Source of the DNA: Escherichia coli
GTDB taxonomy: Bacteria; Pseudomonadota; Gammaproteobacteria; Enterobacterales; Enterobacteriaceae
DNA: 64,000 nt
Reading direction: 5' to 3' (one strand)
Assembly: GCF_044647545.1 (NCBI RefSeq)
Contig: NZ_CP172818.1
The notes beneath the pieces were generated by a model. That model made no database searches. It was not told the origin of the DNA and worked only from the letters and a program-made list of their open reading frames with translations. A program made the translations under genes and the position numbers. Of the stretch, positions 9-34,584 are shown in pieces (the first letter of the stretch is position 1; every line of letters starts with the position of its first letter).

Positions 9-2348
9 TTACTCGTTATCCGGGTTAAGACGACGACGGCTGATAATACGCAGCAAACGCCACAGTACCCATGCCAGCAGCACGACGCTGATTGCCGCCA
101 GCACCGCCAGCAGAATCGGATGGTTTGCCAGGGCATACCATAAGCGTTCGAACCACGGCAGATGGCCAACGTAATAGACGTCGCCAACGCGTAGGCTATT
201 GATACCGGACTCGCGGATCACCGCGACCGAACCGAACATGGTGGCGCGTTTGCCGCTATCGTTCACCGCATCGTTAAGCATTTCATAACCGCGTGGGCTA
301 TCTGCCAGCAGCGCAATCACGCTACGCTGGTCGTTATACGGCGACTGGAAGCCAATCACCGCTGCCATCGCACCGGAAGAGGTCAGCGTTGACTGAGTTT
401 CTGCCGCGCGATCGCTCTCGTCCGGTACAATGCCGGGGAACGGGGTCTGGCGCATCGGCGTTTTCACCCAGCTTTCGGTCGCCTGCACCAACAGATCGAT
501 CTGCTTATCGTCTTTCAGTTTGTCCGGGATACCACCGACGATCATGATGTCGGCATCTTTGCCCTGAATGGTGCTGCCATCATCGGTCACCGTCAGGTTA
601 ATCGCCGGGAAGCCCGTCTGCGCACCGATAAAGCCAACGGTATTCAGCAAGGTTTCCATCTGTGCTTCGTTAGGCGCTTTCGGCATCACGGTGATGGTTT
701 GTGACAGATCCGCCATCCGGCTGAACGGGAAGCCCGCGTTAGCAAAGGCGCGTAGATCCGGCATCGGAATGAAGTGGTAATACTTCGAGAAGTCGATGGT
801 GGAATCATCACCAATCACCACATGATTCTGCACCGGCTGGAAGGTAATGCAGTTATCCACCGAACCGCCCGGCATCGGGTTCATATACTCAAAGTCAAAG
901 CGCAGCTGGTTGGTCGCGCCCAGTTTCAGCGCCGGAATAGAGACATCCGTTTTGCCATCCAGCAAACCTTGTAATACCGGAATCCGCAGCAGCAGGCGGT
1001 TCGCCTCCTGTTTACTGCTCAGGTTGAAGGATTGCAGGAACTGGTTATTCAGGCTGATATCCATCCGCGAACTGTCTTTCACCGGCGGCATGGTGTAGCG
1101 ATAGTTGATATCCATATCAATGCCGGTACTGCGCATCAGGTAGAGATCCGGCGGCAGATTTAGCGAAACGTTAATCGCTGCTGGCTCAAGACCGCTGGAT
1201 TGTAACTGTTCTTCATAGGTTTTCAGTTCACCAAAGGTGACCGGACGATCGGTACGCACCCAGTTCGGCGCATCGTACGGCTTACGCGGTAGCAGCGGTT
1301 TCACTTCATTCACTACCACGCTTTCACCACGGAACAGAATGTTACCCTGAGCGATACCTTTCGCTGCCTGCAACAGGTCTTTGTCGTCACGACCAAACAC
1401 CACCAGCAGTTTGACGTAAGGATTCTGCGGATGGTTGATCATCTCAATCACCGGGGCTTTTACCGCCGGATGATCGTGCAGGAAGTCCGGGCGTTTGTCA
1501 TTAGTGGCAAAAACAATGGCATTGCGATTCGGCAGTTGGTTATAGAGCACCGGGAAATTCTGCCCACGCCAGCCAGAACGCGAACCAAACCACGAGGCGA
1601 CAATAGCTGATGCTTGTTGCAATCCAGTATCTGGCGTACCCGCAAAGACCATCGGCAAGGTGTTGGTGCGGTTATCACGCGGGTCAAAGAATGGTACCGG
1701 GAAGTGTGACAGGTCATTCTTCACATTCAGGGTCTGATAGGTCAAATCCAGTCCACTGCTCCGCCCAACATCCAGCCAAAGCGTGGTGCTGGCCGGGTTT
1801 TCGCACACGTCCTGATAATGGCCGACAAACTCCAGCCGCACACGGTTGAAGTCGGTAATAAACAGTGGGTTAATGGGCATTTGCGCCAGCGTTTTTTTAC
1901 CCAACTGTTCTTTGGTCACTGGCAGCACGCCCATCAGCTCATCATTGAGATAAACCTTTAACTGCGACTGGACAGGCAGTAACGATGGCGATGGCGTGTA
2001 TTCGAGGTTGAGCATCGCCTTCGTCACCACTTCATCGCTGCGCATACCAAACTCAATGCTGCCGTTCGGGTTAATGCCACGTAGCACCATGCTGCCCGGC
2101 GGCGGCGCGATTTGCGCAAAGGTCAGCTTCACATCACGCGAAGGACCGTTCTGCGCCACGATGGGGGCATCAGCGCCCTGCACGCCTGGCATCACTTGCC
2201 CCACCTGCGGATTTTGTTCCGTCTGGGCGGCTACAGCTGGCTCAGCATTGATCAGTGGTTGCGTTGCTGGCGTCGCCTGCGTCATGAAAGAGGGGAACGC
2301 ACTCATCCCCATAGCCACTGCACAAATCCAGAATAGTTTTCTTTTCAT
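9..2348 (-). CDS. bcsB: Cellulose synthase periplasmic subunit BcsB (c-di-GMP-regulated cellulose synthase regulatory subunit)
   Basis: Minus-strand ORF 9..2435; N-terminus trimmed to the Met of MKRKLFWICAVAMG (signal peptide) at 2348, giving 779 aa, the length I recall for E. coli BcsB; immediately downstream of bcsA as in the bcsQAB operon. Confidence 0.9.
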   Translation of the reverse strand: MKRKLFWICAVAMGMSAFPSFMTQATPATQPLINAEPAVAAQTEQNPQVGQVMPGVQGADAPIVAQNGPSRDVKLTFAQIAPPPGSMVLRGINPNGSIEFGMRSDEVVTKAMLNLEYTPSPSLLPVQSQLKVYLNDELMGVLPVTKEQLGKKTLAQMPINPLFITDFNRVRLEFVGHYQDVCENPASTTLWLDVGRSSGLDLTYQTLNVKNDLSHFPVPFFDPRDNRTNTLPMVFAGTPDTGLQQASAIVASWFGSRSGWRGQNFPVLYNQLPNRNAIVFATNDKRPDFLHDHPAVKAPVIEMINHPQNPYVKLLVVFGRDDKDLLQAAKGIAQGNILFRGESVVVNEVKPLLPRKPYDAPNWVRTDRPVTFGELKTYEEQLQSSGLEPAAINVSLNLPPDLYLMRSTGIDMDINYRYTMPPVKDSSRMDISLNNQFLQSFNLSSKQEANRLLLRIPVLQGLLDGKTDVSIPALKLGATNQLRFDFEYMNPMPGGSVDNCITFQPVQNHVVIGDDSTIDFSKYYHFIPMPDLRAFANAGFPFSRMADLSQTITVMPKAPNEAQMETLLNTVGFIGAQTGFPAINLTVTDDGSTIQGKDADIMIVGGIPDKLKDDKQIDLLVQATESWVKTPMRQTPFPGIVPDESDRAAETQSTLTSSGAMAAVIGFQSPYNDQRSVIALLADSPRGYEMLNDAVNDSGKRATMFGSVAVIRESGINSLRVGDVYYVGHLPWFERLWYALANHPILLAVLAAISVVLLAWVLWRLLRIISRRRLNPDNE

Positions 2349-29954: not shown

Positions 29955-30038
29955 ACTTTTATCCACTTTATTGCTGTTTACGGTCCTGATGACAGGACCG
30001 TTTTCCAACCGATTAATCATAAATATGAAAAATAATTG

Positions 30039-30234
30039 TTGCATCACCCGCCAATGCGTGGCTTAATGCACATCAACGGTTTGACGTACAGACCATTAAA
30101 GCAGTGTAGTAAGGCAAGTCCCTTCAAGAGTTATCGTTGATACCCCTCGTAGTGCACATTCCTTTAACGCTTCAAAATCTGTAAAGCACGCCATATCGCC
30201 GAAAGGCACACTTAATTATTAAAGGTAATACACT
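30039..30234 (+). promoter_or_regulatory. cspA: cspA promoter (-35 TTGCAT, -10 CTTAAT, AT-rich UP element) and about 160-nt cold-responsive 5' UTR
   Basis: TTGCAT at 30039-30044 and CTTAAT at 30062-30067 with a 17 bp spacer; a long leader precedes the ATG at 30235, consistent with the thermosensing cspA 5' UTR. Confidence 0.7.
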
Positions 30235-30447
30235 ATGTCTGGTAAAATGACTGGTATCGTAAAATGGTTCAACGCTGACAAAGGCTTCGGCTTCATCACT
30301 CCTGACGATGGCTCTAAAGACGTGTTCGTACACTTCTCTGCTATCCAGAACGATGGTTACAAATCTCTGGACGAAGGTCAGAAAGTGTCCTTCACCATCG
30401 AAAGCGGCGCTAAAGGCCCGGCAGCTGGTAACGTAACCAGCCTGTAA
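30235..30447 (+). CDS. cspA: Major cold shock protein CspA
   Basis: 70-aa [73 protein letters not shown]; RNP1 motif KGFGFI and RNP2 motif VFVHF. Confidence 0.95.
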
Positions 30448-30474
30448 TCTCTGCTTAAAAGCACAGAATCTAAG

Positions 30475-30502
30475 ATCCCTGCCAAATGGCGGGGATTTTT
30501 TT
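30475..30502 (+). terminator. Rho-independent terminator of cspA
   Basis: Hairpin atccctgcc-aaat-ggcggggat followed by TTTTTTT. Confidence 0.7.
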
Positions 30503-30635
30503 ATTTGTTTATTCAGGAAATAAATAATCGTTCGCGTAATAAAATCTATTATTATTTTTGTGAAGAATAAATTTGGGTGCAATGAGAATGCGCAACGCCG
30601 TAAGAAAGGCGGGAATAACTTCCCGCCGAAGACGC

Positions 30636-30788
30636 TTACTCTTTCAATTTGCAGGCTAAAAACGCCGCCAGCTCATAATTCTCCTGTTTAATATGCAATT
30701 CACACAGTGAATCTCTTATCATCCAGGTGAAAAATAAAAGCGTGAAACAAATCACTATTAAAGAAAGTAATCTATATTTCTGCGGCAT
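30636..30788 (-). CDS. hokA: Type I toxin HokA (Hok/Gef family small membrane peptide); locus disrupted by IS150
   Basis: 50-aa reading MPQKYRLLSLIVICFTLLFFTWMIRDSLCELHIKQENYELAAFLACKLKE; the IS150 left end begins 33 bp upstream of the start codon. Confidence 0.8.
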   Translation of the reverse strand: MPQKYRLLSLIVICFTLLFFTWMIRDSLCELHIKQENYELAAFLACKLKE

Positions 30789-30867
30789 TCCCAGCCTCCT
30801 GTGTTGATTTCCACCGAGTATGTACTGCACCCATTTTGTTGGACGATGAAATGGAATAGCCCCTGAT

Positions 30868-31389
30868 ATGTCAAAGCCAAAATACCCTTTTGAAAAGCGC
30901 CTTGAAGTCGTGAATCACTACTTCACTACTGATGATGGTTACAGGATCATCTCGGCACGTTTTGGTGTCCCCCGAACCCAGGTCAGGACATGGGTTGCCC
31001 TCTATGAAAAACATGGAGAAAAAGGTTTAATTCCCAAACCTAAAGGTGTTAGTGCTGATCCAGAGTTGCGTATTAAGGTCGTGAAAGCTGTGATCGAGCA
31101 GCACATGTCCCTTAATCAGGCTGCTGCTCACTTTATGCTTGCTGGTAGTGGTTCTGTAGCCAGGTGGCTGAAGGTTTATGAAGAGCGCGGAGAAGCTGGT
31201 TTACGCGCGCTCAAGATTGGCACCAAAAGAAACATTGCAATATCAGTTGATCCAGAAAAAGCGGCATCAGCATTGGAGCTGTCAAAAGACCGACGTATTG
31301 AGGATCTTGAAAGGCAAGTTCGATTTCTTGAAACGCGGCTTATGTATCTAAAAAAGCTGAAAGCCTTAGCTCATCCCACGAAAAAGTGA
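30868..31389 (+). CDS. insJ: IS150 transposase OrfA (InsJ), HTH DNA-binding protein
   Basis: 173-aa ORF MSKPKYPFEKRLEVVNHYFTTDDGYRII...; IS3-family OrfA. Confidence 0.9.
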   Translation: MSKPKYPFEKRLEVVNHYFTTDDGYRIISARFGVPRTQVRTWVALYEKHGEKGLIPKPKGVSADPELRIKVVKAVIEQHMSLNQAAAHFMLAGSGSVARWLKVYEERGEAGLRALKIGTKRNIAISVDPEKAASALELSKDRRIEDLERQVRFLETRLMYLKKLKALAHPTKK

Positions 31390-32237
31390 AAGTACTCAAC
31401 GAGCTAAGGCAGTTTTATCCTCTTGATGAGCTTCTCAGGGCTGCGGAGATACCGCGCAGTACGTTTTATTACCATCTAAAGGCTCTCAGCAAGCCTGACA
31501 AGTATGCGGACGTTAAAAAGCGTATTGGTGAGATTTATCACGAGAATAGAGGCCGATACGGATACCGTAGGGTAACGCTGTCTCTTCATCGAGAAGGGAA
31601 ACAGATTAACCATAAAGCTGTTCAGCGCCTGATGGGAACCCTCTCACTTAAAGCAGCGATTAAGGTCAAGCGATACCGCTCTTACAGAGGAGAGGTAGGG
31701 CAAACCGCCCCTAATGTTCTCCAAAGAGATTTCAAGGCTACGCGGCCAAACGAGAAGTGGGTTACCGATGTTACTGAATTTGCAGTCAATGGGCGCAAGC
31801 TGTATTTGTCTCCAGTAATAGATCTCTTCAACAACGAAGTTATTTCTTACAGCCTTTCGGAAAGACCAGTGATGAACATGGTTGAGAATATGCTCGATCA
31901 GGCATTCAAAAAGCTTAATCCTCACGAGCATCCTGTTCTGCACTCTGACCAGGGATGGCAGTATCGTATGAGAAAATATCAAAATATTCTTAAAGAACAT
32001 GGTATTAAACAAAGCATGTCCAGAAAAGGCAATTGTCTGGATAATGCTGTGGTGGAGTGTTTCTTTGGAACCTTAAAGTCGGAGTGTTTTTATCTTGATG
32101 AGTTCAGTAATATAAGCGAACTGAAGGATGCTGTTACGGAATATATTGAATACTACAACAGCAGAAGAATTAGCCTGAAATTAAAAAGTCTGACTCCAAT
32201 TGAATATCGGAATCAGACCTATATGCCTCGTGTTTAA
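31386..32237 (+). CDS. insK: IS150 transposase OrfB (InsK), DDE integrase catalytic domain; expressed as an OrfAB fusion by -1 frameshifting
   Basis: 283-aa ORF in the -1 frame relative to insJ; DDE-type motifs; slippery A_AAA_AAG at 31349-31355 within the overlap region. Confidence 0.85.
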
Positions 32238-32473
32238 CTGTCCAACTTTTTGGGGTCAGTACACACTTTGATTTATAGTCAGGTGGGGCTTTTCTCTGTC
32301 TGCCTTTCGGTGAATACCTGAGACAAACAGTCTCAAGCACCCGTGGCTATTCTAGCTTAATAAGTTCGTTTCTTCTCCTTGATATAATCCTAAAAAAATC
32401 TCATAAAATTAATATATGAGACAATCTTTATTCAGCAGAAGATTATTAAAGGTTGCTCTATTATTTAGCGATA

Positions 32474-32502
32474 AAAAAGCCTGCCAGATGGCAGGCTTTT
32501 TA
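32474..32502 (-). terminator. Rho-independent terminator of glyQS
   Basis: Hairpin gcctgccagatggcaggc flanked by A-run and T-run (U-run on the minus strand), 13 nt downstream of the glyS stop. Confidence 0.75.
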
Positions 32503-32514
32503 ATAACGACGTTA

Positions 32515-34584
32515 TTACTGCAACAGCGAAATATCCGCAACTCGCAGGAATAATTCGCGCAGTTTCTCCAGCATGGTAAGACGGTTGATTCGCAATTCTT
32601 TGTCATCAACCATGACCATCACTTTATCGAAGAAGGCATCAACCGGTTCACGCAGCTCAGCCAGTTCGACCAGCGCATCCTGGTAACGACCTTCAGCAAA
32701 GTACGGCTCTAGCTTGTCACGTAGCACCACAACCTGCATCGCCAGTTTAATTTCTTCCGGCTCTTTCAGAGTAGAGGCATTCACGCGGTCGCTCAGCACT
32801 TCGTCAGATTTCGCCAGAATGTTAGATACACGCTTGTTCGCCGCCGCCAGTGCTGCAGCTGCATCCAGGGTACGGAAGTGCGATACCGCTTTCATTCGGG
32901 CATCGAAATCAGCCGGACGAGTCGGACGACGCGCCAGTACCGCCTGGATGGTGTCAACGGTGTAACCTTCGTCCTGATACCAGGCGCGGAAGCGACCGAG
33001 CATAAAGTCGATAACATCATCAACCACGTTGGCATTAGTCAGCTTATCGCCATACAGACGCACTGCTTCTTCGGTCAGGGTTTGCAGGTCAAGATTGAGG
33101 TTCTTCTCAACGATAATACGCAGCACGCCAAGTGCGGCACGACGCAACGCAAACGGGTCTTTGTCGCCTTTCGGATGCTGGCCGATACCGAAGATACCCG
33201 CCAGAGTATCCATCTTGTCAGCAATCGCCAGCGCACAGGCTACCGGGTTAGACGGCAGGTCATCACCGGCAAAGCGCGGCTGATACTGCTCGTTCAGCGC
33301 CACGGCAACATCTTCCGCTTCGCCATCGTGACGCGCGTAGTGCATCCCCATAACGCCCTGGGTGTCGGTGAACTCGAAGACCATGTTGGTCATCAGGTCG
33401 CACTTGGACAGCAGGCCCGCACGGGTTGCGTGGTTAACGTCAGCGCCAATCTGTTCAGCAATCCAGCCAGCCAGCGCCTGGATGCGGTCAGTTTTGTCGC
33501 GCAGTGTACCCAGCTGTTGCTGGAACAACACGGTTTGCAGGCGCGGCAGGTTATCTTCAAGACGTTTTTTACGGTCGGTATTGAAGAAGAACTCGGCATC
33601 CGCCAGACGTGGACGAACGACTTTCTCGTTACCGGAGATAATCTGCTGCGGATCTTTCGATTCGATGTTGGCAACGAAGATAAAGTTCGGCAGCAGTTTG
33701 CCGTCGTTCGCATACACCGGGAAGTATTTCTGGTCACCTTTCATGGTGTAAACCAGCGCTTCAGACGGCACCGCGAGGAATTTCTCTTCGAATTTTGCGG
33801 TCAGCACAACCGGCCATTCCACCAGCGAAGCGACTTCTTCCAACAGGCTTTCGCTTAAGTCAGCGTTACCGCCAATCTTACGCGCCGCTTCTTCGGCATC
33901 GGCTTTAATCTTCGCCTTACGTTCTTCGTAATCGGCGATGACTTTCCCGCGCTCACGCAGAATTTCCGGATACTGATCAGCATTGTCGATAGTGAATTCC
34001 GGCTCGCCCATAAAGCGGTGGCCGCGAATCACGCGATCGGACTGAATGCCCAGAATGGTAGCCGGAATAACTTTGTCGCCCAGCAGCAGGGTCACGGTGT
34101 GCACCGGACGCACGAAGTGCACGTCGCTTGCACCCCAACGCATCAGTTTCGGGATCGGCAGTTTCGCCAGCGAAGTCGCAACCATATTCGGCAGCAGTGC
34201 TTCGGTGCTTTCGCCCTTCACGTGGGCGCGATACAGCAGCCATTCACCTTTATCGGTAGTCAGACGCTCAGCCTGGTCAACGGTAATACCGCAACCACGC
34301 GCCCAGCCTTCTGCCGCTTTGCTCGGTTTGCCTTCAGCGTCGAACGCCTGAGCAATCGCCGGGCCGCGTTTTTCGATTTCACGATCCGGTTGCGCTTCCG
34401 CCAGGTTAGCTACTTTCAGCGCCAGACGACGCGGAGCAGCAAACCATTGAACGGTGCCGTGTGCGAGGCCAGCGTTATCCAGCTCCGCAGTAAAGTTCGC
34501 AGCAAAGGACTCAGCCAGGCTGCGCAGTGCTTTTGGTGGCAGCTCTTCAGTGCCGATTTCCACCAGAAAAGTTTTCTCAGACAT
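32515..34584 (-). CDS. glyS: Glycine--tRNA ligase beta subunit
   Basis: 689-aa [23 protein letters not shown]...; directly downstream of glyQ. Confidence 0.95.

Follow-up and report, generated by a model that had tools for sequence, protein, structure and literature searches.

In the dnaX gene of Escherichia coli, the slippery heptamer A_AAA_AAG is followed at a spacing of 6 nt by a stem-loop, and an upstream Shine-Dalgarno (SD) sequence is used as well. The shift in dnaX ends translation early and gives the gamma subunit. Among the insertion sequences (IS) of the IS3 family, IS911 has an extra upstream SD-like stimulator together with a branched structure, and IS3 has a pseudoknot. A further member of this family, IS150, actively generates mutations in production strains and in evolution experiments with E. 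coli. IS911, IS3 and IS2 share with IS150 an A_AAA_AAG-type heptamer in the overlap of orfA and orfB, a downstream RNA structure and an OrfAB transposase (PMC4066793). With reference to Vogele et al. 1991, the text of PMC4066793 describes insJ of IS150 as a proven example of -1 frameshifting with a stem-loop as stimulator. The corresponding statements in PMC8254509 and PMC5771124 cite the same work for frameshifting that is required and highly frequent in IS150, and PMC5771124 gives a frameshift efficiency of about 50%. In the supplement of PMC4066793, the cluster A_AAA_AAG_37 corresponds to insJ (IS3 family, IS150 group, IS150) and is flagged 'true'; the motif is listed at codon 163, with a shifted product of 456 aa, an unshifted product of 173 aa, a conserved hairpin and an 'N' for a conserved SD.

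Here we analysed the insJ/insK region in a window of 64,000 nt, by which we mean the whole stretch of DNA under study, from E. coli contig NZ_CP172818.1 (assembly GCF_044647545.1). We are highly confident that the feature at the end of insJ is the programmed -1 ribosomal frameshift cassette of IS150 (IS3 family, IS150 subgroup). This reading draws on the phase of the heptamer, the arrangement of the frames, the predicted hairpin, conservation and covariation in relatives, the unbroken match of the fused protein to the IS3 transposase model and the assignment of the element to IS150, and no feature of the sequence speaks against it. Slippage, its efficiency and its stimulation by the stem are carried over from the literature on IS150 and not read from the window. 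Ribosomes that translate orfA (insJ) would reach A_AAA_AAG with Lys-tRNAs on the codons AAA and AAG, and the hairpin 6 nt downstream, located at the mRNA entrance, would resist unwinding and cause a pause. In a fraction of the ribosomes, both tRNAs would slip back by one base onto AAA_AAA, and the orfB (insK) frame would then be read from 31356. The slipped product would be the 456-aa OrfAB, the active transposase, in which HTH DNA-binding domains at the N-terminus are combined with the DDE catalytic domain, whereas non-slipping ribosomes would stop at 31387-31389 and yield the 173-aa OrfA alone. Unlike the dnaX shift, the shift in IS150 would extend the protein by 293 residues.

The heptamer AAAAAAG occupies positions 31350..31356 on the plus strand (sequence context ttatgtatctAAAAAAGctgaaagcc). 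Read from the insJ start at 30868, the zero-frame codons are CUA (31348-50), AAA (31351-53) and AAG (31354-56), where the last two encode Lys162 and Lys163. The phase is hence A_AAA_AAG, of the X_XXY_YYZ type that tandem -1 slippage requires. In the -1 frame, the last stop codon is found at 31329-31331, and frame translation shows that the frame is then open from 31332 to the insK stop at 32235-32237. Both frames are open over 31332-31386 (55 nt), and the heptamer lies inside this stretch. The annotated GTG start of insK (31386) is located 30 nt downstream of the heptamer, and the annotated coding sequences of insJ and insK overlap by only 4 nt (GTGA, 31386-31389). A preliminary description of this DNA had reported the heptamer near the insJ end, with insK in the -1 frame and as part of the IS3-family mechanism for making OrfAB, all of which agrees with our results. 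It had named a heptamer out of phase with insJ and a lack of downstream structure as findings that would speak against this mechanism, and we observed neither. The coordinates given there (31349-31355) read TAAAAAA, as position 31349 is a T, and need to be moved one base to the right. The further claim that the heptamer is inside the insJ/insK overlap applies to the open frames and not to the annotated coding sequences.

The bare heptamer is common in the window, with 27 copies on both strands compared to 16 +/- 4 expected. Each of these copies was scored for three properties: an upstream ORF in the zero frame, a downstream ORF in the -1 frame and the folding of the 60 nt that follow. The copy at 31350 is the only one that is both preceded by a long zero-frame ORF (167 codons) and followed by a long -1 ORF (293 codons), and the fold of its following 60 nt ranks third among the 27 copies (-18.5 kcal/mol). 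As for an SD-like stimulator, none of GGAG, GAGG or AGGA occurs in the 30 nt upstream of the heptamer (31320-31349). IS150, unlike IS911, has no SD-like element, and according to the predictions a simple hairpin with a long loop is enough. An upstream SD is an optional enhancer and not a defining feature of a -1 frameshift signal.

The predicted hairpin begins after a spacer of 6 nt (CUGAAA, 31357..31362) on the same strand. Its 5' arm (GCCUUAGCUC, 31363..31372) and its 3' arm (GAGCUAAGGC, 31401..31410) were found in the minimum free energy (MFE) and centroid folds and are supported by covariation in relatives. The arms form a perfect, G-C-closed stem of 10 bp and enclose a loop or internal region of 28 nt (31373..31400), in which the stop of insJ and the annotated GTG of insK are located, so that the hairpin has a length of 48 nt. 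The stem-loop alone (31363-31410) folds with -17.0 kcal/mol (z = -5.2), the 60 nt following the heptamer (31357-31416) reach z = -3.9 at the energy given above, and the 81 nt that include the heptamer (31350-31430) fold with -21.6 kcal/mol (z = -3.5); in each of the three cases, 0 of 200 shuffles were as good. The preliminary description had proposed folding the 40 nt downstream of the motif as a check for a stimulatory stem-loop. This interval (31357-31396) reaches only -3.8 kcal/mol (z = -0.8, with 41 of 200 shuffles as good), which is a false negative because the 3' arm begins 45 nt after the heptamer. The check thus succeeds over 60 nt, where a strong and conserved hairpin is present, and fails over the 40 nt that had been suggested. 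Sharma et al. 2014 (PMC4066793) derived rules for stimulators from 271 IS3-family members: these start 4-10 nt past the motif, have a G-C closing pair with at least three further pairs and span 17-140 nt. The hairpin described here, which is G-C-closed with a 10-bp stem, starts 6 nt past the motif and spans 48 nt, agrees with these rules.

Several additional structures were considered around the hairpin. The MFE fold of the 81 nt extends the stem by pairing AAAGCU with AGUUUU, which takes up bases of the slippery site; we rejected this extension as irrelevant to the stimulator because these bases are inside the ribosome during slippage and because the extension is not conserved. A search by eye for a pseudoknot yielded only a non-conserved alternative pairing of GCUCAUC with GAUGAGC. 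Scanning positions 30000..33000 against Rfam with cmscan (E <= 1) gave no match within 31300..31450 and no frameshift-element family; apart from weak terminator-like matches, the scanned region gave only the cspA thermoregulator and sok. Judging from this search, the IS150 signal is not represented by a model in Rfam. When 30700..32400 was scanned in a simple manner for promoters and terminators, no convincing promoter emerged, and the frameshift hairpin did not resemble a terminator.

To compare the cassette across elements, we gathered relatives by blastn and by tblastn against plasmids. The elements obtained include ISKpn8, with 94.6% nucleotide identity to IS150, and IS3-family elements on plasmids of Klebsiella, Raoultella and Enterobacter (L003-L006; 64-67% nucleotide and about 66% amino acid identity). 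More diverged are an IS on an E. coli plasmid (54% amino acid identity in OrfB), a Mycetohabitans element (46%), ISEnfa3 of E. faecium (44%), a B. thuringiensis element (43%) and an L. plantarum element (39%). All ten of these frameshift-type relatives have an in-phase A_AAA_AAG at the homologous position (in L. plantarum as A_AAA_AAA), and in each of them the heptamer lies at the transition from a long ORF in the zero frame to a long ORF in the -1 frame. Furthermore, a homologous stem begins 5-6 nt past the motif in all ten. The orfA stop is found 8 to 30 codons past the site, usually inside the hairpin and at a variable position. The loops are wholly divergent in sequence, and the aligned arms of 11 nt are 21 to 44 nt apart.

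ISKpn8 and the Klebsiella, Raoultella and Enterobacter plasmid elements, which belong to the IS150 subgroup, have the same two-ORF layout as IS150 in frames 0 and -1, the same heptamer position, the 6-nt spacer and the homologous stem with 26 nt between the 11-nt aligned arms. They differ from IS150 in that their stems have 11 bp, with U-A instead of C-G at pair 8 and U-G instead of U-A at pair 5; furthermore, their loop sequence is unrelated and most of them carry the extended motif U_UUA_AAA_AAG. More distant IS3 elements, namely ISKpn38 (L014), L016, ISBt2 (L015), L018, L012, L013 and L019, were left out of the stem alignment. Among these, A_AAA_AAG occurs in ISKpn38 and in L016, an element of B. 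cereus; a strong downstream hairpin is present only in ISKpn38, and its stem is not homologous. ISBt2 has G_GGA_AAG and L018 is a single fused ORF, and no qualifying heptamer was found in L012, L013 and L019.

We next consider whether the stem is maintained as an RNA structure. In a loop-trimmed alignment of nine distinct sequences, 97% of the cells are paired and 5 of the 11 pairs show changes on both sides; the 3' arms in this alignment were picked by best complementarity, which leans towards the structure. At pair 8, IS150 has C-G, the Klebsiella group U-A and L. plantarum A-U; pair 1, otherwise G-C, is A-U in ISEnfa3, and pairs 5, 6 and 7 alternate among A-U, G-U and G-C. None of 500 column shuffles reaches the observed covariation score or the observed percentage of paired cells, and sliding the 3' partner by 1-3 columns reduces the paired cells to 16-46%. 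In an unbiased MAFFT alignment of the full regions, 10 of 11 sequences are in the same register. The 3' arm of ISEnfa3 was misplaced by MAFFT because the loop of this element is shorter, and we therefore counted the pairs on the loop-trimmed constructs.

One alternative to the full cassette accepts the shift at the heptamer and holds that the inverted repeat does not stimulate it, with the arms being kept only for the amino acids that they encode in overlapping frames. Indeed, the 5' arm codes for LKAL in OrfA (..KALA..) and for ESLS in OrfAB, and ELR is encoded by the 3' arm in the frame of OrfB, so that part of the conservation of the arms is protein-driven. In addition, 4 of the 11 stem pairs are invariant, and few motifs in E. 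coli are as prone to shifting as A_AAA_AAG by itself (PMC4066793). Protein coding is, however, a poor match for the double compensatory changes in 5 of the 11 pairs, such as pairs 8 and 1, for the nearly complete pairing between arms whose loops diverge completely in sequence and length, and for the constant start of the stem past the motif. Selection on the RNA is indicated by several of the compensated positions, where the changes are synonymous in the OrfAB frame (for example AGC UCA to AGU UCG). Vogele and colleagues are said to have seen about one third of the ribosomes shift and, after mutating the stem-loop, a reduction in frameshifting of about 80%. We thus regard a non-stimulatory repeat as very improbable and retain the stem as the likely stimulator of the cassette. 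With respect to frameshifting, nothing new is learned here, and the covariation in distant IS150-group members confirms the IS3-family literature. The signal is already described biology; the observation in the preliminary description is borne out and its interpretation is supported.

A second alternative is that RNA polymerase slips on the A6 run, gaining or losing an A, and that the fusion comes from altered transcripts instead of ribosomal slippage. We consider this to be extremely unlikely, as the A run has a length of only six and known transcriptional slippage sites usually have nine or more A. The idea has precedents, since transcriptional realignment on A/T runs is used by some IS3-family and other IS elements, and IS1447, which was annotated as a member of the IS150 subgroup, uses +1 transcriptional slippage (PMC6211511). 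The sequence by itself cannot distinguish slippage of the ribosome from slippage of the polymerase. The strict X_XXY_YYZ phase in all relatives speaks against the polymerase, and so does the co-varying hairpin, which lies at the canonical 6-nt spacing and would be without function if the polymerase slipped. Furthermore, ribosomal slippage in IS150 counts as proven in the literature. We therefore maintain ribosomal slippage as the explanation for the fusion.

The fused protein is informative about the last alternative, in which the heptamer is incidental and insJ and insK encode separate proteins. The zero-frame gene insJ (orfA, 30868..31389, plus strand) has its ATG at 30868 and its TGA stop at 31387-31389. 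According to the ORF list, Pfam and the MG1655 annotation, it encodes an HTH DNA-binding protein of 173 aa with the Pfam domains HTH_28 (4e-23), HTH_29 (8e-11), HTH_32 and HTH_23, all above their cut-offs. As annotated, insK (orfB, 31386..32237, plus strand) encodes 283 aa from its GTG in the -1 frame, as seen in the ORF list and the frame translation, with the domains rve (5e-29; the DDE integrase-type catalytic domain), rve_2 and HTH_21. The transframe protein OrfAB (30868..32237, plus strand, 456 aa) consists of codons 1-163 in frame 0 (30868..31356) and 293 codons in frame -1 starting at 31356. At the junction, ...LMYLKK is followed by AESLSSSHEK... (junction peptide LMYLKKAESLSSSHEK). OrfA would have a mass of 19 kDa, and the OrfAB fusion is reported at about 49 kD. 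OrfAB matches the NCBIfam equivalog model NF033516 'IS3 family transposase' with 412 bits (cut-off 160), and this match is one stretch across the junction, covering OrfAB residues 66-448 and model positions 1-369. The catalytic residues of OrfAB are D301, D361, E397 and K404, that is, D(59)D(35)E-K, which agrees with the OrfB motif of the IS150 subgroup, where D(57-60)D(35)E is followed by K about 6-7 residues past E (PMC5771124). The values 163, 456 and 173 that we obtained from the window are identical to those listed for IS150 in PMC4066793, a comparison with published data that the preliminary description had suggested. An exact look-up of the 456-aa OrfAB in a collection of 15 billion proteins returned no match; since frames are left unjoined by gene callers, this absence says nothing about the fusion.

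For two separate proteins, insK would have to be translated from the GTG at 31386 by termination-reinitiation at GTGA, in line with the K-12 annotation of insJ and insK as separate coding sequences with a 4-nt GTGA overlap, but this is hardly credible, as OrfB alone lacks the N-terminal HTH_28 and HTH_29 that are found in OrfA, the IS3 transposase model runs continuously through the junction, the heptamer, phase, spacer and stem are kept down to about 43% amino acid identity while the orfA stop drifts, and IS150-group elements use OrfAB as transposase (PMC5771124). OrfA, OrfB and OrfAB have all been seen for IS150-group elements, which indicates that some OrfB-only product exists beside the fusion (PMC5771124). 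The frameshift cassette thus stays our preferred reading, and annotation should treat insJ and insK as a single recoded gene for the transposase OrfAB (456 aa) instead of a frameshifted pseudogene or a pair of small, unrelated genes.

As the orfA stop and the insK GTG both fall in the loop of the hairpin, the structure could also affect the production of OrfB. Ribosomes that terminate within the melted hairpin might reinitiate and produce OrfB alone, although we regard this as unlikely. If true, a single RNA element would set a three-way ratio of OrfA, OrfB and OrfAB. In a related element, OrfA and OrfB both inhibit transposition (PMC5771124).

Lastly, we examined the element that carries the cassette. 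It spans 30821..32263 on the plus strand (1443 bp) and has the ends TGTACTG...CAGTACA. The left and right inverted repeats, IRL (30821..30851) and IRR (32233..32263), are imperfect; the arms of this inverted-repeat pair extend over 30817-30851 and 32233-32267 and are 71% complementary. Many complete E. coli genomes carry copies that are 100% identical to the whole element (1443 bp), and a match was found in 2864 of 5426 genomes. In RefSeq, an identical copy is annotated as 'IS3-like element IS150 family transposase; programmed frameshift', with a coding sequence in two joined pieces (1370 nt) that is equivalent to 30868..32237. The membership in the IS3 family and the IS150 subgroup is consistent with the imperfect TG...CA ends, the two ORFs in frames 0 and -1, the HTH of OrfA, the D-D-E-K of OrfB and the NF033516 match.

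The IS150 of K-12 (insJ/insK, also ins150A/ins150B; Vogele et al. 1991, Nucleic Acids Res 19:4377) is the same element with the same length, the same site and the same frameshift cassette. In MG1655, it is annotated as 'insertion sequence:IS150' at 3720633..3722075, with insJ and insK as separate coding sequences. The two copies are identical at 1433 of 1443 positions (99.3%), and the ten substitutions are all located outside the cassette (0 of 10 in 31338..31420). Three of the ten are nonsynonymous (S221G, R370K and G441S, numbered as in OrfAB), and the variant in the window is the one that occurs with 100% identity in many other E. coli. Thus, the assignment to IS150 in the preliminary description is confirmed both by K-12 and by the RefSeq-annotated copies.

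In the window and in MG1655, IS150 occupies a common chromosomal site between cspA/hokA and sokA/glyS. No target-site duplication was found at this copy, where the flanks read ..ccgagta before and cactttg.. after the element. An IS-free allele in strain LR-28 has 38 extra bp between the same flanks; the IS-bearing allele therefore has an adjacent 38-bp deletion in the hokA/mokA/sokA locus, and the missing target duplication is explained by this deletion beside the element. The earlier statement that the element is probably intact is thus appropriate for its own sequence and does not extend to the insertion, which has no target-site duplication and abuts the deletion. Judged by both ends, both ORFs, the recoding signal and the identity to dispersed copies, the sequence of the element looks fully functional, and the copy appears to have all cis and trans parts for movement. 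An intact IS150 copy is a practical source of insertions and rearrangements. The same IS150 junction is present in 1647 of 5426 complete genomes, which indicates that the insertion is old and vertically inherited. With 1443 bp, the element marginally exceeds the length range of about 1.2-1.4 kb given for the IS150 subgroup (PMC5771124), yet IS150 is the type element.

The IS150 copy (30821..32263, + strand) interrupts a type I toxin-antitoxin locus, hokA/mokA/sokA. The left flank of the element (30636..30830) holds the hokA ORF on the - strand, and the right flank (32246..32342, - strand) matches the Rfam family sok with 69.5 bits, which is above the gathering score; this match shares the final 18 nt of IS150. 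We thus conclude that IS150 has split the hokA gene from the sokA antisense and promoter region. The same separation is present in K-12.

To the left of the locus, a full-length match to Rfam RF01766 (500 bits) covers the cspA mRNA thermoregulator and the cspA coding sequence (30075..30502, + strand), with the 70 aa CspA encoded at 30235..30447. Since glyS (32515..34584, - strand), which encodes the 689 aa beta subunit of glycine--tRNA ligase, lies directly to the right, the E. coli order cspA-hokA-IS150-sokA-glyS is confirmed. The interval from sokA to the glyS end contains a GC-rich hairpin (32441..32507 on the + strand and 32468..32555 on the - strand) with an A-run on one side and a T-run on the other, aaaaaagcctgccagatggcaggcttttt. 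Its Rfam matches, STnc370 (46 bits compared to a gathering score of 54) and leader families, are sub-threshold, and the hairpin most likely acts as an intrinsic terminator in both directions.

When inspecting the flanks of IS150 (30818..30820 and 32264..32266), we found no target-site duplication. Strain LR-28, an E. coli with an IS-free allele, contains 38 additional bp, agaggctaaccttatggtgtctatgcatagaggggcct, exactly between the two IS flanks (320..358 of the retrieved locus); the IS-bearing allele therefore has an adjacent 38-bp deletion. Among 5426 complete E. coli genomes, the IS-bearing junction was detected in 1647 and the IS-free arrangement in 2826.

The window does not come from K-12 MG1655, to which it is 98.7% identical over 2.7 kb (29986..32687 compared to NC_000913.3 3719800..3722500). 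Despite the shared insertion site, the two IS150 copies differ by ten substitutions, and their OrfAB proteins by three amino acids (S221G, R370K and G441S). In other strains, IS150 copies at different sites are 100% identical to the window variant, which hints at gene conversion between IS150 copies or at in-situ divergence of the K-12 copy.

Many relatives in the IS150 group share the extended run U_UUA_AAA_AAG, in which two slippery heptamers, U_UUA_AAA and A_AAA_AAG, overlap and are both in phase. It occurs in three Klebsiella/Raoultella/Enterobacter elements (L004, L005 and L006, 723-732), in ISEnfa3 (L008, 735-744) and in elements of L. plantarum (L011, 901-910) and B. thuringiensis (L017, 850-859). 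In IS150 and ISKpn8, by contrast, CUA precedes the A-run and thus only a single heptamer is present. In some distant relatives (~33% amino acid identity), the OrfA-like and OrfB-like parts form one unbroken 513-codon ORF, for instance on an Enterobacter hormaechei plasmid (L018, 127..1668; tblastn matches H86-H90). As the ORF is uninterrupted and tblastn matched these relatives in one piece, they are IS3-family transposases without a frameshift.
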